Sequence record: PZ242158.1
Reading direction: 5' to 3' (one strand)
DNA length: 64,000 nt
DNA from: a phage
Positions 5,040 to 37,207 of the stretch are shown here, piece after piece. Within the stretch, counting starts at the first letter, position 1. Each line of letters starts with the position of its first letter. The notes beneath the pieces are model-generated. The model was given only the letters and a program-made list of their open reading frames with translations. It was not told where the DNA came from and did no database searches. The translations under genes and the position numbers were made by a program.

Positions 5040-5340
5040 TACTTGAAAATTTCTGGCATATCAAGTATAAGGGGGATTTCTAAAATGGATTTCCTCCTTT
5101 TTGATATTTCACCAGGCCAGATATTTTAAAATTCTTAGAAAATCAGAAAACGGATAGAAAACTAAAATGGATTTTTCAGGGTAGACACGATGAGCTGAGC
5201 CACTCATCCTATCGTTTGCGTCATATTCCGGGCTACCATTCCAGATTTTCCGCGTATGCTCACACCCTTCTACCAGAACTTTCCCACTCGCCCTTGGCCT
5301 TTTATGGCAATAATCCAGCCACTATCTTGAAGTTGCGGTA

Positions 5341-5540
5341 CAGCTCTCCAAGTACTCGATCTGTTTTTCGTTTCAAAGATTGAATTTTCTGAAAATTTTT
5401 CTCGATAAATTTCTCAGTACTCGATCTGTTTTTCGTTTTCTGAATCGGATTTTCTGGAAATCGTTCCAGCTCTCGACCTGAAATTTTTGGGGACGAAATC
5501 GATTTTTCGTTTTCAGAAATGGATTTTTAAAATTTCTATA
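5341..5540. repeat. imperfect tandem repeat array (three units of about 52-74 bp sharing CAG(C/T)(A/T)CTCGA(T/C)CTG..TTTTTCGTTT)
   Basis: AGTACTCGATCTGTTTTTCGTTT present at 5351 and 5416; related unit at 5467. Confidence 0.6.
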
Positions 5541-5643
5541 TGGGAATATTTTATGGGATACTGTTTTATAGGAAATTGTTACGGAGGGTAATTAGCATGC
5601 TAATTAAATTTATTAAATGCGAGGAGTTCTCATTTAGAATTTT

Positions 5644-5660
5644 GAATGATAATCATTCTC
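5644..5660. promoter_or_regulatory. Fur-box-like palindrome GAATGATAATCATTCTC
   Basis: Core AATGATAATCATT matches the E. coli Fur box core (GATAATGATAATCATTATC). Confidence 0.4.
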
Positions 5661-7742: not shown

Positions 7743-8084
7743 ATGACTACTATGACCGCCGCAGAAAAAGCTATTCAGATCGCCGCACTGAAAAAACAGA
7801 TCGCAGACCTTGAGAACAAGATCGATAACTTTGAAATCGACGAGGACAAGTACGACGAAAACTATGATGAATGGTTAGACGAGATCTACGGCGAAATTAT
7901 GATCGGAAACATTTCTTTTCTTCCGTCGCGTATCCTCAAGGAGCTAGATCCTATCGCTTACCGCTGCGGATTTAGCGACTACATCGACAGCCTGGATATT
8001 GAGGACGATGAAGAATACCAGGAATTACAGACAGAGTTAGAAGAAGCAAAAGAAGAGCTTGCAGAACTGGAAGAAAACGAGTAA
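7743..8084 (+). CDS. hypothetical acidic coiled-coil protein
   Basis: ORF 113 aa, Glu/Asp-rich. Confidence 0.5.
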   Translation: MTTMTAAEKAIQIAALKKQIADLENKIDNFEIDEDKYDENYDEWLDEIYGEIMIGNISFLPSRILKELDPIAYRCGFSDYIDSLDIEDDEEYQELQTELEEAKEELAELEENE

Positions 8085-8494: not shown

Positions 8495-8848
8495 ATGATC
8501 AGCGGGGCAAGTTTTATTATTGGCGCTATTGCTACGGCTTTAATTGTAAACAAGATCCAATCTAAAAACGAAAAAGATAGCAACGCCCTTACAGAATACC
8601 CGTTTTGGGTATTCAACGACAATGAAGACTATATTATCAAGTACAAGAATGAGAAGGGCGACCAGGTAACACCGCGACCGATCCCGGCTTACAAGATGCA
8701 AGAAACACTATACCGCCTAAAGGCTGGAGGCGCAAAAATCGTAGACTTTTGGGGATACGATCACACAGATCAGGAAGTTATAAAGCGCCGTATCCGGGCT
8801 ATTCAGGCCAATATTGAAGTTAGCAAGGGGGGAATATATGAAGATTAA
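8495..8848 (+). CDS. hypothetical protein with N-terminal transmembrane segment
   Basis: AAAGGAGAAAGTAC-ATG; hydrophobic N-terminus. Confidence 0.45.
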   Translation: MISGASFIIGAIATALIVNKIQSKNEKDSNALTEYPFWVFNDNEDYIIKYKNEKGDQVTPRPIPAYKMQETLYRLKAGGAKIVDFWGYDHTDQEVIKRRIRAIQANIEVSKGGIYED

Positions 8849-9035
8849 TTTTGAGAAGATTGTAAAGCGATCTCATGCTTCCGAAGAGCTGCCGGAACGC
8901 CGCCAGCGCAACAATAAACTGAATAAGCCAAAAAGATTTGGGAAGATCTGGCGAAATCATTATGATCGCAAATTACCGGGCCTGCTTTTGGAACGTGAAC
9001 GACAGGCGGAACGATACCGCCACAAAGGCAAATAA
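8838..9035 (+). CDS. hypothetical basic small protein
   Basis: Overlaps upstream stop; Arg/Lys-rich. Confidence 0.35.
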   Translation: MKINFEKIVKRSHASEELPERRQRNNKLNKPKRFGKIWRNHYDRKLPGLLLERERQAERYRHKGK

Positions 9036-9043
9036 CAACCAAC

Positions 9044-9070
9044 GCCCCGCCATTGTGCGGGGCTTTTTAT
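9044..9070 (+). terminator. rho-independent terminator (GCCCCGC-loop-GCGGGGC + T-tract)
   Basis: GC-rich hairpin followed by TTTTTATTT. Confidence 0.6.
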
Positions 9071-9276
9071 TTCTATCCTACGAATAGCGCCCCCGGTTGG
9101 CCCTGTAAGCGCCAAAAAGGCCCCACCTATGCAATCGCCCCCCTTTAACCTGAAAACATCGCTTAGGGCCGTTTTATGGCGTTAAAAATATCATTGACAG
9201 TGATTTTATTTAAAGCTTGACATCTTAAACAGGTTAGCTATACTAACCACATCAAAGAGAGAAAGGAGTAAACGCC

Positions 9277-9537
9277 ATGCGTAAATTAAAAAATTTTGAT
9301 AAAGTTGATGTTGTCCTGAATAATTTTTACTACTGCAACAACAAGGCCATTTGGTGGCGTGATAGTTCCACCGATAAAGTTAAAGCTCGCTTTCTCCAAG
9401 GGCACTGGCAAGGCCGTCCAGTGATTAAAATACTGGGGCAACTGGTAGCGTTTAAAAATTGCCGCCGTGTTGATGACGTTGAAGAGATCTTGAACATTTT
9501 ACGCCACAATAATTTAAAAAATAGTGTTGACAAGTAA
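9277..9537 (+). CDS. hypothetical protein
   Basis: ORF 86 aa. Confidence 0.5.
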   Translation: MRKLKNFDKVDVVLNNFYYCNNKAIWWRDSSTDKVKARFLQGHWQGRPVIKILGQLVAFKNCRRVDDVEEILNILRHNNLKNSVDK

Positions 9538-15298: not shown

Positions 15299-15562
15299 AT
15301 GAAACGCCTTGATCAGCTCAAATTAGTTCAATATATGGCTTATCGTGTTCTTGAAGTCCAGAAAGGTAGCAAAAAAGAGGTTTGCGAGAAAGCTTATAAG
15401 ATCTTCACTCGCAAAAAAGATGACTGGATGCTACGCCAGACCAAAAAGGCTGACATCTTGGGGTACCTGGAAGAAGAGATCCGACTTGAAGAGCAAGAAG
15501 AGATCCGCCGTAGTGAGGCAGATTATCAGGCAGCTTGGGAAAACTGGATGAGCAACAAATAA
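15299..15562 (+). CDS. hypothetical protein
   Basis: AAAGAGGAAAAACATC-ATG. Confidence 0.5.
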   Translation: MKRLDQLKLVQYMAYRVLEVQKGSKKEVCEKAYKIFTRKKDDWMLRQTKKADILGYLEEEIRLEEQEEIRRSEADYQAAWENWMSNK

Positions 15563-15705
15563 TACAACAAGGTGCACGGTCAGGGGCTTAAAGCCCCTTG
15601 ATCACATAAAAATTATGCTATCCCTGGTTGACAGGGATCGGCAGTTTTGCTATATTCTTTTTTGAAGGGAAGTTGTAAGAAAATTAACTAAGAGGTAAAA
15701 ACACC

Positions 15706-16125
15706 ATGAACATTAAATCTAATAATCCGGCATATAGCTTTGATAACGCTTTTTGTCACGGTCCGGCGGCGAAAGGATTCGAAATCGATGGTAAACTAAT
15801 TATTGTCAATGTTGACGGGGAAGAGGTTGCAGTATATCCGGTGGCAGACGTAAAAAGCCGTTTACAATGCCGCATGGATGTTACCGCCTATCAGCTTGAT
15901 CCGGTCCGCATAGTTGCCCTGGTCCTGGAAGAAGAAATTAAAGCCATGCACCATAGCAACAGGTTTATTGGTGACGCTCAGGATAATATGAAGGTGTGCC
16001 GCCATAAAGTTAATGAAGTGCTTAAAGAGTACGGCTATAAAGATCTTATGATCAAACGTGATGAAAAATTCCGGTACCGTAACGACCTGGCAAATCGGAT
16101 TTTTGAAATATACGAATCATTATAA
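15706..16125 (+). CDS. hypothetical protein
   Basis: CTAAGAGGTAAAAACACC-ATG; last plus-strand gene before gene-free zone. Confidence 0.5.
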   Translation: MNIKSNNPAYSFDNAFCHGPAAKGFEIDGKLIIVNVDGEEVAVYPVADVKSRLQCRMDVTAYQLDPVRIVALVLEEEIKAMHHSNRFIGDAQDNMKVCRHKVNEVLKEYGYKDLMIKRDEKFRYRNDLANRIFEIYESL

Positions 16126-16785
16126 TTTTTTAACTGAATTATCAAGGGGCTTAGGTCCCTTTCTTTTTGTCTGCTCTTCCTCCCTACCATAAACGGCCCT
16201 ACCTGGCAAGTGGAATAATTGACGAGCCATCAATCCCACACACTGTACAAATATACATGTAAAATAACTATTGCATAACCTTTCATTGTGTGGTAGCGGT
16301 GCTATTTTTACCCGTTTTCCTTCCAAAATTGCACGTAATGCAGCTATTGCACAAAATTTAACCTGATGCGCATCTTCAATATCTTGTCAACAACTAAAAA
16401 TCTTTATAAGTCATACACTTACACAAACCAAAAAGCGTGTTCTACGTGAAAAATCGAGTATAACTATAGCCGACAGATCTCAGAATTTACGTACGCTCAC
16501 CATTCTATAGCCTGCTAAGTATTTATTCCGACCATAGAATAACAGAATAGTCAATACCTGCATAAAATAATTATTCGTTTAAATTGCATAACATAAATCA
16601 GCTCAGGTGTCAACATTTTTCGTAAACAGTCTGAAATTGTCACGGCAAGTTATCATAATCAGAGAAATCTTTAGTCGTCTAATGTTTACTGTACGTTACT
16701 ATACTAACTGGAATCATTAGATGACTAATAGAAAGATAAGAAATAATTAACAATACAATTATTTTATCTGTAACAATAAGGCAAC

Positions 16786-16950
16786 TATGCAAACGAATGG
16801 CATGGCGCGACGGAGTCGCGACATAATATAAAAGCAGTAACCATCACCCCCGTGATAGTTTGTCTGCAATCTATTAATCAGATCATAGTTGCCTTGTATT
16901 TAGTTAATCATGACATAACAAGCAAGGCAACTATAGATCTTCTAATAGTT
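16786..16950. repeat. iteron-like inverted repeats (AAGGCAACTAT / ATAGTTGCCTTG) with palindrome GCGACGGAGTCGC
   Basis: GGCAACTAT occurs twice direct and twice inverted within about 160 bp; ATGCAAACGAATGGCATGGC also repeated at 16797 and 17059. Confidence 0.5.
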
Positions 16951-17191
16951 GCCCTGCTTTTATATTATGTCATATATTATTAACTTGTTAATTGTTAGTC
17001 AGTCAAATCAACAGCGTTATCATTTCAGTCTTTATTGTTGTTGATCGTTATTGTTATCATGCAAACGAATGGCATGGCTTATCATCTCTGTATAAACAGT
17101 TTATGCGTGAACAGTGAGGCATGCAATAGTAACAATTGTTATTGTGTCATCATGTCAAGGGTAAAGTGTCATAGTATGTCAGACATGTTTT

Positions 17192-17625
17192 TCCCCTCTT
17201 TGTCAAGTGCTGCATGAAAAAATTTACAAGCTGGTATGGTAGCATTTTTGCGGCCTTGTTTACATTCAGGAGTGTATGTATAATCCTTGTTGTGTGGGCG
17301 TTTATACGTCTGGACGGTCAGAAGTCTGCAGGTTAATATCTAATCTATTGGCTGCTAACTATATCCCACACAAATGATAAGAAATATAATTGTTATATGC
17401 GTAAACTGTAACTCATGTTATCAATCCCTGTATGTATCGCCAGTGGTGCGCATAATGGGTATTATGTTAAATTGCCCGTAATGATAACAGTTCTCACAAT
17501 GATAGGTATTCTCATTCATCCACACAAAATAGGTTGCAAATGTTGTGCCACTGTGTGAACGGCCTGGCCTATTAATTTCTCTCACTGCCTCGATATTTGA
17601 GAATTGTTATAAGAATGAGAAGTAT
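17192..17625. repeat. 434-bp direct repeat, copy 1
   Basis: Identical to 17752-18185 by visual comparison. Confidence 0.85.
17256..17284 (+). promoter_or_regulatory. sigma70-like promoter inside repeat copy 1 (TTGTTT-17-TATAAT)
   Basis: Perfect -10 hexamer with 17-bp spacer; no ORF downstream. Confidence 0.4.
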
Positions 17626-17751
17626 CCATGTTTATATTACATCTACTTGGTTCAGAACCAAAATGCGCGAAAGCGTTTCACGATAACTAGCGACCACGGT
17701 CTGTTCCCTGGCGGCCATACGGCTTCTACTGAACGCAGCAGAGGGCGATAA

Positions 17752-18185
17752 TCCCCTCTTTGTCAAGTGCTGCATGAAAAAATTTACAAGCTGGTATGGT
17801 AGCATTTTTGCGGCCTTGTTTACATTCAGGAGTGTATGTATAATCCTTGTTGTGTGGGCGTTTATACGTCTGGACGGTCAGAAGTCTGCAGGTTAATATC
17901 TAATCTATTGGCTGCTAACTATATCCCACACAAATGATAAGAAATATAATTGTTATATGCGTAAACTGTAACTCATGTTATCAATCCCTGTATGTATCGC
18001 CAGTGGTGCGCATAATGGGTATTATGTTAAATTGCCCGTAATGATAACAGTTCTCACAATGATAGGTATTCTCATTCATCCACACAAAATAGGTTGCAAA
18101 TGTTGTGCCACTGTGTGAACGGCCTGGCCTATTAATTTCTCTCACTGCCTCGATATTTGAGAATTGTTATAAGAATGAGAAGTAT
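17752..18185. repeat. 434-bp direct repeat, copy 2
   Basis: Identical to copy 1; 126-bp unique spacer between copies. Confidence 0.85.
17816..17844 (+). promoter_or_regulatory. sigma70-like promoter inside repeat copy 2 (TTGTTT-17-TATAAT)
   Basis: Same as copy 1. Confidence 0.4.
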
Positions 18186-19213
18186 TCCCATTCCGTCCGC
18201 CTGGCAGCGCTCCTGTAGGTCCTGCAAGGACTCTAGCTTTCAGCTAGACCCTTCGGGCCTCCCTACAGGTCAGGTCAAAATCGTGGTAGAATTGGGCCTA
18301 TTCAGATATTTCTGGCTGACTCTTCAGGTCTGTGTGGGAAAAGCCAACCTCTCCGGCGGGGCAGGGGGAGGTCAATTAAAAAATTTACGTGGTGTATGAA
18401 GCGCTCTTCAGGTAAGGCAGGTATTATGGGATGAAACCCTCTTCAGGCAATGATATTTGTGGGTGTGATATTTGCTGGAAAGCCAGATATGACGGGACTC
18501 CCGGCGGGGCAGGGGTAGTACAGACAGGGAAAATATGAGAATGTAGTTGGGGAAATTGATCAGACAGGTAGAGTATGGAATATGTTACAAGTATGTTAAA
18601 TATGGAGGTTGAATATCTGTAGGATTTGTGTGTAAAATCAAAGACTTAAGGGGTGTTGTGATATTTTCTATAAATAATTCAAGTTTAATAGGTGATATTT
18701 GTCTCTATCCGCTTTGTGTGGTAAACAGATTCAGATGAGATTGGTTTACAAGTGTATACATAATATACAAATTAAAGATACAAGAAACCCCCCATCCCCC
18801 TTCGGCTACCATTCACCTTTTCCTCTGACTGGTACTTAAACACTTATTCAGACTCTTCAGGTTATCACCCATATATCATATGGCAGTGACTGGTGTCCTC
18901 CGGCCCCTCTTTCGTCACCCGTCCGCTTCGCCATGCTAATGCCATAGCCAATGGTTCGGTTGTTCACCCTGTTCACTCAGGTGTATCTCCATACCCCTTC
19001 AAACCGAAGAGAACAGAAAACCCGAATTACTCGGTAAAAGAAAAGAGAAGAACTTAATTTTATCAGGATAGGCAAGAATGTCAAGGCATGACTGCTCACT
19101 AAACAAGCAAACAGTCATGTGTGGGAGGTAAGTGATTGTGGTGGTGGGAAATTTAGTTGAAAGATGTGTTATAGGTGCGCTTCCAGCACTTTAGCCGGGC
19201 AGCTAATTGTGTG

Positions 19214-19429
19214 TCAGTCCAGTGGTTCATCACCTACTTCACTGAAATCAATGTTCATGGTCTCCTCCCAACCATCAATCTCAGCACCAGAGTAGAGATC
19301 TTTAGGACTTACTCCCAAAGCATCAGCAACAGAGTCCATATTTAACACCTCTGGCAGGTATGATTCATCGAATTCAAGGTAAATCAGGCCACGAGTGTTG
19401 TCAGCTCCACCAAATATTTCTATCTTCAT
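19214..19429 (-). CDS. hypothetical small acidic protein
   Basis: ORF 71 aa, acidic C-terminus; last gene of minus-strand block. Confidence 0.45.
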   Translation of the reverse strand: MKIEIFGGADNTRGLIYLEFDESYLPEVLNMDSVADALGVSPKDLYSGAEIDGWEETMNIDFSEVGDEPLD

Positions 19430-19550
19430 GAAATCTCCTCTGGAAATGAGAGTGTGAACAGGGTTTTATACGTTCCGATGCACAGGAATTATGCACGTTT
19501 GCCTCTTCAGGCCATGCTTTAGCATGAGGAACCTGTGTGGGCTCGGTGCT

Positions 19551-19763
19551 TCATAGTCTACCACCCCTGAACTCTTCGTGCTCAGGCATAATAGAGAACC
19601 AGATATCTACGATGTCTTCCCACGTTAGGTCATCAGCCTCAGGATCTACCTGGAGCGAAGATGGAGAATCTTCAGAATCTAAGTTTTCCTCTTTCACTGG
19701 CTCAGCCAAGGGACATATAGTCACTCCTTTGGATGTCTCTTCAGATGCATGTGTGTTTATCAT
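19551..19763 (-). CDS. hypothetical small acidic protein
   Basis: ORF 70 aa; overlapping plus-strand ORF judged less likely. Confidence 0.3.
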   Translation of the reverse strand: MINTHASEETSKGVTICPLAEPVKEENLDSEDSPSSLQVDPEADDLTWEDIVDIWFSIMPEHEEFRGGRL

Positions 19764-20123
19764 GTTCCACCCGTGAGTATTCCGGCAACAGCCGCTATGG
19801 ACGTAATGATCATCAGGATCACCACTAAAACTTCGGACAATGTTCTCATTGTGTACTCCATATTCTACAAACTATGTGTGGATACTATCACTGGATCGGT
19901 AATGTGTCAACAGAAACGCCGCGAGGGTTTGGTTAAAATCCGAGCGTATGGTGATTTGGGTCAAAACGGACGTGCGTTCTCGCTACGCTCGAAATATGGA
20001 GTTGTTTGTAGGGAGCTCTTAAACGCTCTGTAATGAGATTAACTGCCCAAGGTATGCAATCGTGCACCAGATAAAGAAAAGGACGCCACAGAGCGTCCTA
20101 GGTGTCTTAAATTTGATATTTTG

Positions 20124-34944: not shown

Positions 34945-35937
34945 CTACAGGTTATTACCTGTCCTATGTTTACAACAAATCTCTCTATGCGCTGATTCTA
35001 CCATACTGAACACTTCAGGTCTGTAGTTAAAGAATTCGGTACTACCATCAAATTTTACAGGGAAGTTTATTTTATATTTACTGAAGGCTTTGTGCATAGA
35101 TTTTTCTACAGCCAGCATGTTTTCAGTTGATCCTTCCAACGTTTTCACTATGTGAAGATCGCGGATACCAGCTCCAGATCTTTGTGCACTTTTAAGTATC
35201 TGGTCTCTTCGCTTACTTTCATTATGACTGACCCCTATTTTCATAAATGTAGGTACTTCTGGATCATCAACCATAATGTAGAGTTTTCCGTTATCGTGTG
35301 ATAAAAATCCTGTTTTAGCGCATCTAGGGCAAGCATGTCCCTGCTTAAGACTGCTTGGTACGGTTAACCATGTGTGGCTACAACCTTTACAGCAGCACAG
35401 GACTTTCTTATCCCACCCAATAATTTCTTCCAATATCTCAACATAAGGATTTCTACTTCTTATGGACTCAACCCACTTTTCGTGTGGTGATGTTTTACTT
35501 TGTGAGATTCTTGACCCCTTGCAAACTGGACAACCTCTTTTCAAATTTATATGGTTATCAGGTGTCTGTGTAAAGTGATTTCCACAAGTGTTGCAGATTA
35601 TTTCTACCCTGTCTTTGCAAGTCTTGTAGTATACGAGAGAGTAGTCATATTTATCTCCATGGATTTCTTTGGCCCTTTCTACAAATTTAAGACCTTTATT
35701 ACACTTTGCAGCACGAGAAAGTTTTGCACAAAAAGGACAACCACGACCTTGCAAGTGTTTACAAGGTGCTTGCATAAAATCCCCATGGATTTGGCAGGTA
35801 ATGCAAACCTTCGCATAGCAATCCACGTACACTGTTTTCGTGTAATCGTATTTATAACCGTGAATGATTTTCGCCTTCTCTATAAACTCTTCTGTTGATA
35901 ATTTAGCCATTTCTTGTTTCCTAACTTCCCTAAACAT
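34945..35937 (-). CDS. free-standing homing-endonuclease-like protein (three zinc-ribbon repeats plus C-terminal T5orf172/GIY-YIG-like domain)
   Basis: Repeated HG.KYDYS...C..HG.F...P..H..G.GCP.C units; C-terminal YIMVDD..KIGVSHN. Confidence 0.5.
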   Translation of the reverse strand: MFREVRKQEMAKLSTEEFIEKAKIIHGYKYDYTKTVYVDCYAKVCITCQIHGDFMQAPCKHLQGRGCPFCAKLSRAAKCNKGLKFVERAKEIHGDKYDYSLVYYKTCKDRVEIICNTCGNHFTQTPDNHINLKRGCPVCKGSRISQSKTSPHEKWVESIRSRNPYVEILEEIIGWDKKVLCCCKGCSHTWLTVPSSLKQGHACPRCAKTGFLSHDNGKLYIMVDDPEVPTFMKIGVSHNESKRRDQILKSAQRSGAGIRDLHIVKTLEGSTENMLAVEKSMHKAFSKYKINFPVKFDGSTEFFNYRPEVFSMVESAHREICCKHRTGNNL

Positions 35938-35974
35938 CTGTATAGTGCCACATCCTTGTGGCTTTTGTCAAGTA

Positions 35975-37207
35975 TCAGCAACCACAACTTCCGTAGTGCT
36001 TAACTCGCTCGATAACTTCCGCTTGCTTACCTTTATTGTAAGGACGGGAGTTAGGACTGGAAAGATATCCAGACACTCTTCGGATCACTGAGATATATTG
36101 TTCATCGTGGCATCCGCACGCAGGGCAGCAGAACCCTTTAGCTGTTGCACTGAACTCACCAGAGAAACCACACTTGAGACATTTATCCACAGGTTGGTTA
36201 ATACCAAAATACATAATATGTTTATACCCGAAGTCAACAAGAGCCTCTAAAGCATCCAGGTTGTTTTTCAGGTTAGGTGTCTCTACGTATCCAATGTTGC
36301 CACCAGAGGAGATCATAGCAAAACCTTCCTCATACTCCCACTTATCAAAAGGAGAGCTATTTATCCACACTGGCTGATGGAAACTGTTGGTGAGATATTC
36401 ATGCTCGTGCTTCAACACTTCCGGGTATTCACGATCCAGACAGGTTGCAGCTTTATAGCATAGACTCTCAGAAGGAGTGCCGTACAAGCTAAATGCTAGT
36501 CTACTTTCCTTCTTGTATCGCTCACAAGCATCTCTCATGTGCTGAAGGATTCCAAGAGCTAAAGCCTTGTCACCCTCTCTGCCCAAAATCTGACAGGTTT
36601 CATACACACCAATATACCCAATACTGATGGAAGCGTACCCGTCATAGAAGAGTTTATCAATACTCTCTTCAGGATCCAGGCGAGCAAGAGCGCCTTCACA
36701 CCACATGATGGGGTTCTGCCCTGCCTTTGTTCCTTTTAGACGGTTAACCCTTACAAGGTGAGCCTCATATGCAAGATCCAAGTATTCGTCAAGAACTGCA
36801 AAGAAATCAACACCTTCCGTCTTAGCTTTTGCCGCAATCATTGGCAGGTTAAGGCTAACAACGCCTAAGTTAAATCTGCCAAGGTATTTCTCCTCGCCTG
36901 TTTCCAAGTCATTGTATTTGCTAAGAAAACTCCTGCAACCCATGCTAGTTACTTTGCCATCTGTCGAGCCTGTCACTTTTCTATTTAGTGGTACAGATAC
37001 GAAGTCAGGATAGATACGTTCTGCACAGCATTCCAGAGCTAATCGTTTCAAATCATAGTTAGGATCCCCAGGGTTCATGTTGACACCCTCTTCCAGGAAG
37101 AACAGCACTTTAGGGAACACAGGTGTGATACGTTCTTCACCAAGACCCATTTTGTGGACTTTCAAGTAATTTTTGGTAATCATTCTACCAAAGACCGAAG
37201 TGTCCAA
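35975..37207 (-). CDS. nrdD: anaerobic ribonucleoside-triphosphate reductase, C-terminal exon (glycyl-radical domain); true 5' boundary is the intron 3' splice site
   Basis: Zn site CPACGC and glycyl radical motif RRVSGYL near C-terminus. Confidence 0.8.
   Translation of the reverse strand: MDTSVFGRMITKNYLKVHKMGLGEERITPVFPKVLFFLEEGVNMNPGDPNYDLKRLALECCAERIYPDFVSVPLNRKVTGSTDGKVTSMGCRSFLSKYNDLETGEEKYLGRFNLGVVSLNLPMIAAKAKTEGVDFFAVLDEYLDLAYEAHLVRVNRLKGTKAGQNPIMWCEGALARLDPEESIDKLFYDGYASISIGYIGVYETCQILGREGDKALALGILQHMRDACERYKKESRLAFSLYGTPSESLCYKAATCLDREYPEVLKHEHEYLTNSFHQPVWINSSPFDKWEYEEGFAMISSGGNIGYVETPNLKNNLDALEALVDFGYKHIMYFGINQPVDKCLKCGFSGEFSATAKGFCCPACGCHDEQYISVIRRVSGYLSSPNSRPYNKGKQAEVIERVKHYGSCGC

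Follow-up and report, generated by a model that had tools for sequence, protein, structure and literature searches.

A direct terminal repeat and a conserved non-coding block in the gene-free zone of an rV5-like coliphage genome

Analysis of the window (the whole 64,000-nucleotide stretch of phage record PZ242158.1) indicated that its gene-free zone is very probably (about 0.88) the concatemer junction of the linear genome of a Vequintavirus, in which a direct terminal repeat (DTR) of about 459 bp lies between arms of about 1 kb, two copies of the repeat being joined here through an adapter. The window is from an rV5-like coliphage (Vequintavirus), and 122 Vequintavirus records match it at 92-98% identity. 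As a preliminary description of this DNA had stated, the zone (16126-19213, no strand assigned) lies between convergent transcription units, the plus-strand genes ending at 16125 and a minus-strand gene at 19214. The length of 3 kb given there is that of the zone as assembled (3,088 bp); however, 560 bp of it, an extra repeat copy and 126 bp of adapter, is artefactual, and the biological zone is about 2.53 kb (~2,528 bp), a collapsed length that matches the 2.49-2.60 kb of the relatives. Such a block had also been called unusual in a phage, but a gene-free zone is present in all 122 matching records of the genus, and in Kropinski et al. 2013 (PMC3606486) it is drawn as a 'non-coding' box in rV5. 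As the non-coding end region of an rV5-like E. coli phage, the zone had thus been described before. Three natures had been suggested for it: an origin or terminus, a packaging or terminal region, or non-coding RNA (ncRNA). That of a terminal region was borne out, since the direct terminal repeat lies in the zone, as do the two physical ends of the genome; an iteron-type origin was not, and ncRNA is possible for 18790-19160 only.

The largest repeat of the zone, overlooked in the earlier survey of repeats, is an exact direct repeat of 434 bp: positions 17192-17625 and 17752-18185 are 100% identical and 560 bp apart. Tandem Repeats Finder did not report it, its maximum period of 500 being below the 560-bp spacing of the copies. 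The copies bracket a 126-bp insert found in no relative, and the 434-bp segment is single-copy in all 122 Vequintavirus matches, with the right flank directly after it. Searches of 50,697 phage records (distant mode), 5,426 genomes of E. coli, IMG/VR (with an exact 47-mer) and the remainder of the window yielded no match to the insert, which was therefore taken as foreign DNA; Mu-end and leader/barcode alignments then resolved it as adapter. Twenty-one nucleotides match the right end of phage Mu exactly (NC_000929, 36678-36698), and an alignment of 83 nt with the leader, barcode and Mu end reached a score of 81 (shuffles: mean 26, maximum 45), barcode 08 giving the best result. The leader and barcode references in this alignment were what we take to be the Nanopore sequences, the Mu-end match alone being verified with a search tool. 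The sequence of the Mu-end oligonucleotide is published, and the Oxford Nanopore (ONT) rapid kits use MuA. The insert (17626-17751, minus strand) is an assembly artefact, an error-laden Oxford Nanopore rapid-barcoding adapter made up of leader, barcode and MuA transposon end. Since the insert is adapter with a Mu-end match, the zone consists of two DTR copies joined by an artefact, and their joining in the assembly, through leftover Nanopore adapter, makes it 560 bp too long. The right-end and left-end copies would have been joined head to tail via this untrimmed adapter, giving a false 560-bp 'duplication'.

Adapter and barcode remnants abutting DTRs in Nanopore phage assemblies were described by Elek et al. 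2023 (PMC10438801), and there, as here, such DNA adjoins terminal repeats after assembly and polishing. Unlike in those cases, the remnant in the window is internal, lying between abutting DTR copies and resembling a tandem duplication, evidently because the contig had been handled as circular or had been rotated. The adapter presumably reached the junction by contig rotation or in a chimeric read. Transposase-based kits normally do not tag natural DNA ends. A genuine tandem duplication or insertion in the phage would also give identical tandem copies 560 bp apart, and an arrangement seen in no other record could be strain-specific; this is nevertheless highly improbable, since 21 nt of the spacer match the Mu end and the spacer can be aligned with the Nanopore leader, the barcode and the Mu end, the limits of the 434-bp repeat lie within 10 and 16 nt of published DTR ends, and the same kind of artefact is described for other DTR phages (PMC10438801). 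The source record, with its internal adapter scar and duplicated terminal repeat, needs correction, because the artefact would be misread as tandem duplication or novel DNA.

In window orientation, copy 1 is the right-end copy of the DTR (17182-17625, plus strand), whose last 16 nt were lost at the adapter junction, and copy 2 is the left-end copy (17752-18201, plus strand), which lost its first 10 nt there. The boundaries 17182 and 18201 are the ends of the EdH4 GenBank record, which has an exact 459-bp repeat at both ends; Korf et al. 2019 (PMC6563267) give terminal redundancies of 458 bp in the Vequintaviruses EdH4 and HdK5. Position 17182 is the end of the HdK5, ECP2309 and Pr121LW records, 18201 is the start of the EdH4, bov11CS3 and bov25_3 records, and the two positions serve as record ends in 7 records from several laboratories. 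The same sequence at both virion DNA ends is seen in the two identical window copies and in the EdH4 repeat. The DTR itself is conserved, and hypervariable indel regions lie exactly outside both of its boundaries. The identity and boundaries of the DTR, the artefact and the conservation pattern are shown for this zone. One paper reported a PhageTerm call of 'headful, partially permuted' for another Vequintavirus; headful (pac) packaging with circular permutation nevertheless appears improbable here, as the ends of the relatives are identical and apparently fixed, and the position of the adapter coincides exactly with the limits of the DTR.

The 'non-coding' box of rV5 and the 458-bp redundancy are the same locus, so that two separate published observations are tied together. 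The EdH4/HdK5 redundancy (PMC6563267) and the rV5 box (PMC3606486) share with the window the locus, the boundaries and 92-98% identity, and the window differs in its adapter artefact. In the accessible parts of these papers the DTR is not linked to the non-coding box, and the motif arrays, hot spots and ultraconserved block treated below are not described. Both DTR ends also align, base for base, with those that PhageTerm defined in Klebsiella phage KPP-1 (Mydovirus, Vequintavirinae; PMC9862379), whose repeat has 514 bp and 2x coverage and was classed as T7-type. This base-for-base conservation of the termini extends over two genera of Vequintavirinae. As in the window, the short DTR of KPP-1 lies in a gene-poor zone between convergent units; KPP-1 differs in that its nucleotide similarity to the window is weak, one of its arms is shortened to 334 bp and no counterpart of the ultraconserved block could be detected.

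Near its left edge the zone has an intrinsic terminator (16144-16171, plus strand), a hairpin with a T-run that closes the plus-strand transcription unit and that the Alma, Murica and EdH4 records annotate as a terminator too. For most of its length the zone evolves at roughly the synonymous rate, and constraint is concentrated in a few motifs and one ultraconserved, promoter-linked block. The motifs listed in the preliminary description are all present, though its coordinates are off by up to 11 nt. The inverted GGCAACTAT/ATAGTTGCC sites were found at 16780, 16885, 16926 and 16945, the window having six copies against 0.64 expected, and the palindrome GCGACGGAGTCGC at 16807-16819. Of the two ATGCAAACGAATGGCATGGC copies reported, that at 17059 was found as given and the other is at 16787, not 16797. 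These 20-bp direct repeats (16787-16806 and 17059-17078) bound a dispensable module (16787-17078, no strand assigned) whose content includes the GGCAACTAT/ATAGTTGCC sites (16780-16953), an 18-nt inverted repeat (16820-16837/16954-16971) and a hairpin with a CCCC loop (~16845-16860). In the viable phage FV3, a 272-bp deletion has removed one ATGCAAACGAATGGCATGGC copy and everything between the repeats, including the GGCAACTAT pairs and the inverted repeat.

Could the AT-rich left arm (~16500-17180) with its repeats be an iteron-type replication origin? With 34.7% GC in 16001-17000 (about 43% elsewhere in the window), there is the AT-rich stretch expected beside such an origin, the GGCAACTAT sites are enriched, and the arms of the long inverted repeat and its inner hairpin show covariation between Vequintavirus and the L004 clade, whose DTR-equivalent contains three perfect DnaA boxes. 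We nevertheless consider such an origin unlikely. The enriched motifs are 9-mers, mostly in inverted pairs, rather than at least three direct iterons of about 17-22 bp in one orientation; the sole 20-bp repeat is present twice, 272 bp apart; no initiator gene adjoins; the loss in FV3 takes out the GGCAACTAT pairs together with the inverted repeat; the left arm has a diversity (pi) of 0.074, about the synonymous rate; and the zone of the window, when scanned for DnaA boxes, gave no perfect one. The GC skew does turn at the zone, but the turn tracks the switch in gene orientation there, which explains it; the rV5 authors (PMC3606486) attribute it to gene orientation as well.

As part of the terminal region, variable-number short-repeat arrays abut the DTR on its left (17085-17181, plus strand): GTRAACAGT-like units of about 16 nt are followed by four RTGTCA units (17144-17181), the last of which forms the palindrome TGTCA|GACA at the cut site. 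The copy number of these arrays varies among 17 relatives (pi 0.149). Neither GTRAACAG nor RTGTCA is enriched window-wide, the clustering being local only.

On the right, an indel hot spot lies immediately outside the DTR (18202-18269, no strand assigned; pi 0.156) and includes an insert of about 50 nt made up of small hairpins, which is absent in rV5, FV3 and Murica and replaced by alternative inserts in other relatives. The 'extended hairpin' noted here earlier does have its two arms, CCTGTAGG (18212) and CCTACAGG (18262), but it is specific to the window and not conserved: relatives have a direct repeat CCTGTAGG...CCTGTAGG or lack the ~50-nt insert, and relative to them the window has its loop flipped from TGAAA to TTTCA and from GT to AC.

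Five CTCTTCAGG copies had been listed for this region; those at 18320, 18404 and 18439 were found as stated, and the other two are at 18853 and 19503, not 18854 and 19514. The first four (18320-18861, plus strand) lie within the zone. In the window CTCTTCAGG occurs eight times against 0.53 expected, always on the plus strand; read on the minus strand it is CCTGAAGAG, in the sense of the operon running toward the DTR. All Vequintavirus loci and the L004 clade retain the sites at homologous positions and in the same orientation. Two of the local copies (18439 and 19503), as well as one KPP-1 copy, overlap with the -35/spacer of sigma-70-like promoters; a uniform sigma-70 promoter role was rejected, since only two of the five local copies have a -10 hexamer at proper spacing. 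The 120 metagenome matches to a TGTTCAC-repeat pattern were mostly due to chance, only 8 of them being relatives.

Six GATATTT sites, all on the plus strand (18152, 18305, 18452, 18467, 18660 and 18694; span 18152-18700), straddle the DTR boundary. The pair at 18452/18467 lies inside a deeply conserved 'island 1' (18431-18538), the only part of the right arm alignable to the L004 clade. The motif CTCC(C)GGCGGGGCAGGGG, reported twice before, was confirmed at 18351 and 18498; island 1 also has the G-rich repeat CCGGCGGGGCAGGGG (18351 and 18498). KPP-1 likewise has AAATATC repeats adjoining its DTR, in the form AAATATCAC-N-AAATATCAT.

The earlier view that the zone has no convincing ORF was upheld: the largest ORF within it encodes 80 aa, and none of 13 small ORFs scanned against PHROG belongs to a family. 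The genes flanking the zone encode small proteins without an assigned function, and the large terminase gene is absent from the 64-kb window. The zone has no tRNA, the only tRNAs of the window being at 62085-62897, and an Rfam 15 scan of 15500-20000 gave no match at E<=1. Small ORFs are called here in several GenBank records (12 in Mangalyan, a 'structural protein' in APCEc02, gp150 in Murica), as would be expected if the zone held unannotated small protein genes, but this is very unlikely. The 13 ORFs scanned lack a PHROG family; the ORF calls differ from record to record; a 35-aa ORF at 18431 is frame-broken in the L004 clade; the ORFs of the conserved block, in two overlapping frames, have 33% amino acid identity against 75% nucleotide identity, a control gene showing the opposite; and the remaining ORFs sit in segments that evolve about neutrally.

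The ultraconserved non-coding block (18790-19160, minus strand) spans about 350 bp with a core at 18816-19065, and is conserved at the nucleotide and not at the protein level. Its pi is 0.0106, against 0.077-0.100 at third codon positions, a level of constraint like that of non-synonymous sites. Lineage L127 shows 98.4% identity in the block, 87.5% in the neighbouring gene and 74-76% in the flanks. It has no match in Rfam, PHROG or the E. coli genomes; as it has no similarity to the latter, it is not a host mimic. A conserved sigma-70 promoter on the minus strand (19057-19084; TTGACA-16 nt-TG-n-TAAAAT) points toward the DTR, with a predicted start at about 19049. It scored 11/12, joint best in the region, and its version in the L004 clade is TTGCAA-17-TG-n-TATAAT. 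About 15 nt downstream of the predicted start is a hairpin with a U-run (19012-19034, minus strand), which could be an attenuator or terminator and whose stem changes compensatorily in the L004 clade (CCGA/TCGG to CCAGAA/TTCTGG). Another hairpin, recognised from the sequence, CATGACTG...CAGTCATG (19087-19119, minus strand), lies immediately upstream of the promoter, and the L004 clade has a different 8-bp stem, ATACCTAC/GTAGGTAT, at its site.

That the block is an ncRNA transcribed from the conserved minus-strand promoter toward the DTR is a tentative possibility, compatible with the zone being a terminal region. It is favoured by the promoter score and its conservation in two clades, by the low diversity of a non-coding block and its excess conservation in L127 over the neighbouring gene, and by compensatory stem changes in two hairpins; the minus strand also folds somewhat better (z -1.85) than shuffles and than the plus strand (z -0.51). 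Against it, the block has no Rfam match, the covariation term of RNAalifold reached only -1.94, from what were in effect two lineages and with many pairs broken, the hairpin and U-run 15 nt past the start would terminate most transcripts, and uniform base-by-base constraint is atypical of structured RNAs. A literature search on Vequintavirus transcriptomes found nothing relevant. More broadly, the ~350-bp block with its sigma-70 promoter firing into the DTR may be either an essential cis element of end processing or a new constrained ncRNA, with the CCTGAAGAG and GATATTT arrays as sites for terminase or an early regulator, a reading we put forward as speculative. Either a cis element or an ncRNA of this kind, if real, would be the first described for rV5-like myoviruses, phages in wide use for biocontrol and therapy directed at E. 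coli O157; for studies of their packaging, replication and regulation the block offers a defined target.

For the terminal region as a whole, a cutting mechanism and roles for the motifs are proposed by analogy with T7. Two large transcription units converge onto the non-coding arms flanking the DTR. Replication would yield concatemers with one DTR per junction, as in T7-type phages with short DTRs; terminase would cut at the fixed boundaries 17181|17182 (...RTGTCA|GACA...) and 18201|18202 (...CCGTCCGCC|TGGCAGC...), and duplication of the repeat would leave both ends of each virion DNA with a DTR. Candidate cis-acting signals are the arrays near the cuts, the CTCTTCAGG and GATATTT sites in their single orientation, and the conserved promoter firing into the DTR. 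In the cis-element form of the proposal, host RNA polymerase would drive a transcription-coupled maturation or priming of concatemers, as a sigma-70 counterpart of T7 phiOR/CJ. In T7, RNA polymerase pausing at the concatemer junction recruits terminase. The terminal repeat of T7/T3 is flanked by the SRL/SRR short-repeat arrays, phiOR is the promoter and CJ the pause site. The zone resembles this junction in its short exact DTR with apparently fixed ends, in the adjoining short-repeat arrays and in a promoter a few hundred bp off that fires into the repeat. It differs in belonging to a myovirus of about 137 kb, in its sigma-70 promoter, in a DTR three times longer and in non-coding arms of about 1 kb, and no sequence similarity between the zone and the T7/T3 junction was found. 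No phage RNA polymerase is known to us in this myovirus.

A further comparison is offered by the long terminal repeat of T5, a 10-kb repeat that contains a non-coding injection-stop region rich in direct and inverted repeats and tied to two-step DNA transfer; we know of nothing of this kind for rV5-like phages. The T5 tract carries DnaA boxes, as does the DTR-equivalent of the L004 clade, whereas the zone of the window does not. Like the zone, it is a large conserved non-coding region close to one end of the genome, with many direct and inverted repeats.

The gene stops are as given in the preliminary description, 16125 on the plus strand and 19214 on the minus strand, and no convincing ORF was found between them: the largest has 80 aa, and a PHROG family was found for 0/13 small ORFs of the zone versus 4/4 flanking genes. 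The largest feature of the zone, which that description overlooked, is an exact 434-bp direct repeat (17192-17625 and 17752-18185) with its two copies 126 bp apart. Every relative examined has a single copy of this segment followed directly by the right-hand flank, and none has the 126-bp spacer (17626-17751). Searches of 50,697 phage records, 5,426 E. coli genomes, IMG/VR and the remaining window sequence gave no match to the spacer either. Reverse-complemented, it shares a perfect 21-nt stretch with the right end of phage Mu and aligns over 83 nt to a Nanopore leader, barcode and Mu end with a score of 81 (shuffled controls: mean 26, maximum 45), the leader and barcode references being what we take to be the Nanopore sequences. 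The sequence of the Mu-end oligonucleotide is published, and MuA transposase is used in ONT rapid kits. In Nanopore assemblies of phages with direct terminal repeats (DTRs), adapter or barcode remnants adjoin the repeats (Elek et al. 2023, PMC10438801). On these grounds we conclude that the spacer is sequencing adapter, and that the flanking copies are therefore the terminal repeats from either end of a linear genome, brought together in silico. Most likely, an adapter-led contig would have been treated as circular and then rotated. The 3 kb block described earlier is thus a real zone enlarged by the artefact; its biological size, about 2.53 kb, falls within the 2.49-2.60 kb range of relatives.

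According to Korf et al. 2019 (PMC6563267), the genomes of the Vequintaviruses EdH4 and HdK5 are terminally redundant by 458 bp. The EdH4 record begins and ends with identical copies of a 459-bp sequence, and its ends map to 17182 (|GACATGTTTT...) and 18201 (...CCGTCCGCC|) of the window. Position 17182 is also the record start or end of HdK5, ECP2309 and Pr121LW, and 18201 the record start of bov11CS3 and bov25_3. In the window, the exact repeat misses these limits by 10 and 16 nt, which is where the reads ran into adapter. In Klebsiella phage KPP-1, which belongs to another Vequintavirinae genus, coverage is doubled over a DTR of 514 bp that PhageTerm classes as T7-type (PMC9862379). The surroundings of this DTR are likewise gene-poor and bounded by convergent units, and the DTR ends align base for base with those inferred here, both at the left (GACGGACAG... 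and GGCGGACGG...) and at the right (...CTTGACAAGGAGAGAGAATTGTGTT| and ...CTTGACAAAGAGGGGAAAAACATGTC|). A single published headful call, for another Vequintavirus, is given less weight here than the exact repeats.

The terminal region proposed in the preliminary description was therefore the correct reading, since the zone holds the DTR and both genome ends. The 2013 rV5 paper (PMC3606486) shows a grey "non-coding" box without ORFs, with two of four transcription units ending at the genes beside it, and names gene orientation as the cause of the GC-skew change at the box. A GC-skew turn was indeed found in the window (16-20 kb), coinciding with the switch in gene orientation. As the box and the terminal redundancies are published, zone and DTR are both already known; the zone is the known terminal non-coding region of Vequintavirus plus a sequencing-adapter artefact, real but largely explained. 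The left border is variable, because the 139-aa gene next to it (15706-16125, plus strand) is absent from Alma, FV3 and APCEc02, in which the zone begins straight after the preceding 87-aa gene.

By megablast, 122 phage records match 16000-19400 at 92-98% identity, nearly all of them Escherichia phages of the genus Vequintavirus (rV5-like myoviruses, about 137 kb). Nineteen of the 122 are labelled "Campylobacter phage"; as all 19 are rV5-like coliphage genomes (about 87-94% identity), these host labels are probably wrong. One of them, A135, is marked UNVERIFIED, and the Campylobacter-labelled records among the matches listed carry no annotation. To the right of the zone, the minus-strand block carries genes for nucleotide metabolism (ribonucleotide reductases, ligase, exonuclease). 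Within 34948-37207 (minus strand), a 410-aa NrdD (anaerobic ribonucleotide reductase) ORF matches only the C-terminal part of the family profile and has an HNH endonuclease ORF immediately upstream, so that a homing endonuclease seems to have split nrdD. Seven tRNA genes are clustered at 62085-62897 (plus strand); among them, the 99-nt ARAGORN call at 62554-62652 has an unassigned four-base anticodon (atcc).

What remains of interest is an ultraconserved block linked to a promoter, together with the motif arrays surrounding the cut sites. Nucleotide diversity (pi) was calculated for 17 Vequintaviruses aligned to the window with the artefact removed. In the flanking genes pi was 0.012-0.014 at codon positions 1+2 and 0.077-0.100 at position 3; values were 0.074 in the left arm (16126-16905), 0.062 in the DTR and 0.073 in the right arm (18266-18815), so the bulk of the zone drifts near the synonymous rate. 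The segments directly outside the DTR boundaries (16906-17181, pi 0.149; 18202-18265, pi 0.156) are indel hot spots. At the left one, short units of variable copy number, GTRAACAGT-like (about 16 nt) and then RTGTCA, reach the cut site in the palindrome TGTCA|GACA. At the right one, small hairpin inserts are gained and lost among relatives. The "hairpin" CCTGTAGG...CCTACAGG noted earlier is present, within an insert of this kind; relatives carry CCTGTAGG twice as a direct repeat or no insert. Here the window differs from relatives by loop flips of two quasi-palindromes; against the closest relatives, the inversions at 18212-18269 are exact (CTAGC-TGAAA-GCTAG to CTAGC-TTTCA-GCTAG, and CCTGTAGG to CCTACAGG) and bear the hallmark of template switching at hairpins during mutation. 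A GC-rich cassette of about 50 nt with three adjacent hairpins (e.g. ACACCCGAAGGGGTGACCAAAGGTCACCTGGCATAGCCAGTGAAAG) was found in relatives only, none being present in the window. Its sites and orientation vary (L002 about 2470-2520; L012, L013, L014, L018, L020 and L022 near 1480-1530; L005 9326; L024 10057, 11540, 12492 and 12540; L027 255), with up to four copies, two in tandem, in L024. The middle stem covaries clearly (GTGACC/GGTCAC, GTGGAC/GTCCAC, GTGGC/GCCAC), and the cassette resembles a small mobile element built of hairpins.

The core of the ultraconserved block (18816-19065) has a pi of 0.0106, a constraint equal to that of non-synonymous sites. Across the block, the intermediate lineage L127 shows 98.4% identity without gaps, compared with 87.5% for the adjacent protein gene and 74-76% for flanking non-coding DNA, and the conserved stretch extends over about 18790-19160. 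Apart from island 1 (18431-18538), no other right-arm sequence could be aligned to the distant L004 clade, to which the block has 74-78% identity. The block's upstream end on the minus strand holds TTGACA-16-TGnTAAAAT (19084-19057), one of the equal top-scoring sigma-70 promoter matches of the region, and this predicted promoter is kept in the L004 clade as TTGCAA-17-TGnTATAAT. A predicted hairpin precedes it and a predicted hairpin with U-run (19034-19012) follows; both stems change in sequence between clades with pairing retained. Folding gave z-scores of -1.85 (minus strand) and -0.51 (plus strand). In RNAalifold the covariation term was -1.94 and many pairs were broken, across what amount to two lineages, and no match was found in Rfam, PHROG or E. 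coli. Of the ncRNA cluster suggested previously, at most a candidate ncRNA is left, at this block and not in the rest of the zone. A coding block was ruled out, as indel lengths are not multiples of three and four ORF peptides (two overlapping frames) share at most about 33% aa identity over their length versus 75% nucleotide identity; a control gene was the opposite (38% aa identity, E 1e-12, DNA unalignable). In T7, the phiOR promoter lies at the concatemer junction, and a pause there recruits terminase; by its geometry, a predicted promoter firing into the terminal repeat recalls this arrangement.

A deletion in FV3 has removed one of the two 20-bp direct repeats ATGCAAACGAATGGCATGGC (16787, 17059) along with all that separates them, the home of most GGCAACTAT pairs and of an 18-nt inverted repeat. 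This module is therefore dispensable, which leaves the proposed iteron origin unsupported. The L004 clade (IMG/VR, metagenomes) retains the bounding repeats; its inverted repeat (17-18 nt, perfectly complementary) has arms unlike the window's yet matching each other, and its inner hairpin (CCCC loop) shows compensatory changes relative to the window. Together with the FV3 deletion, this indicates a maintained structure, yet not an essential origin. The L004 locus also carries an HNH homing-endonuclease-like gene inserted in the non-coding zone (8776-9486) and, inside the DTR equivalent, three perfect DnaA boxes (TGTGGATAA) within 45 nt (7842-7886); the window has neither.

All short motifs of the preliminary description exist, with positions slightly off (16787 not 16797, 18853 not 18854, 19503 not 19514). 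Both main ones exceed chance expectation in the window: CTCTTCAGG occurs 8 times, all on one strand (0.53 expected), and GGCAACTAT 6 times (0.64 expected). Every Vequintavirus locus, like the L004 clade, has 4-6 copies of CTCTTCAGG, at homologous positions and all in the same direction; in the L004 clade the sites persist despite unalignable surroundings. On the minus strand it reads CCTGAAGAG, in the sense of the operon running toward the DTR. A CATAAT lies at suitable distance from the copies at 19503 and 18439 but not from the other three, and a KPP-1 copy supplies the -35/spacer of a good predicted sigma-70 promoter (TTGACCTGAAGAG...TATACT) before a gene. Possible roles of the motif are that of a promoter-associated operator or of a packaging-protein site. 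Within 550 nt across the right DTR boundary there are six GATATTT sites, all on one strand; the pair at 18452/18467 falls in island 1, conserved in the L004 clade, and KPP-1 has the same doublet beside its DTR. A 35-aa ORF annotated at island 1 in some records was rejected, its frame being broken in the L004 clade. A similar GATATTT pair, 17 nt apart (5103, 5120), was found in a gap of about 600 bp (5040-5645) with no ORF of at least 60 aa and negative local GC skew.
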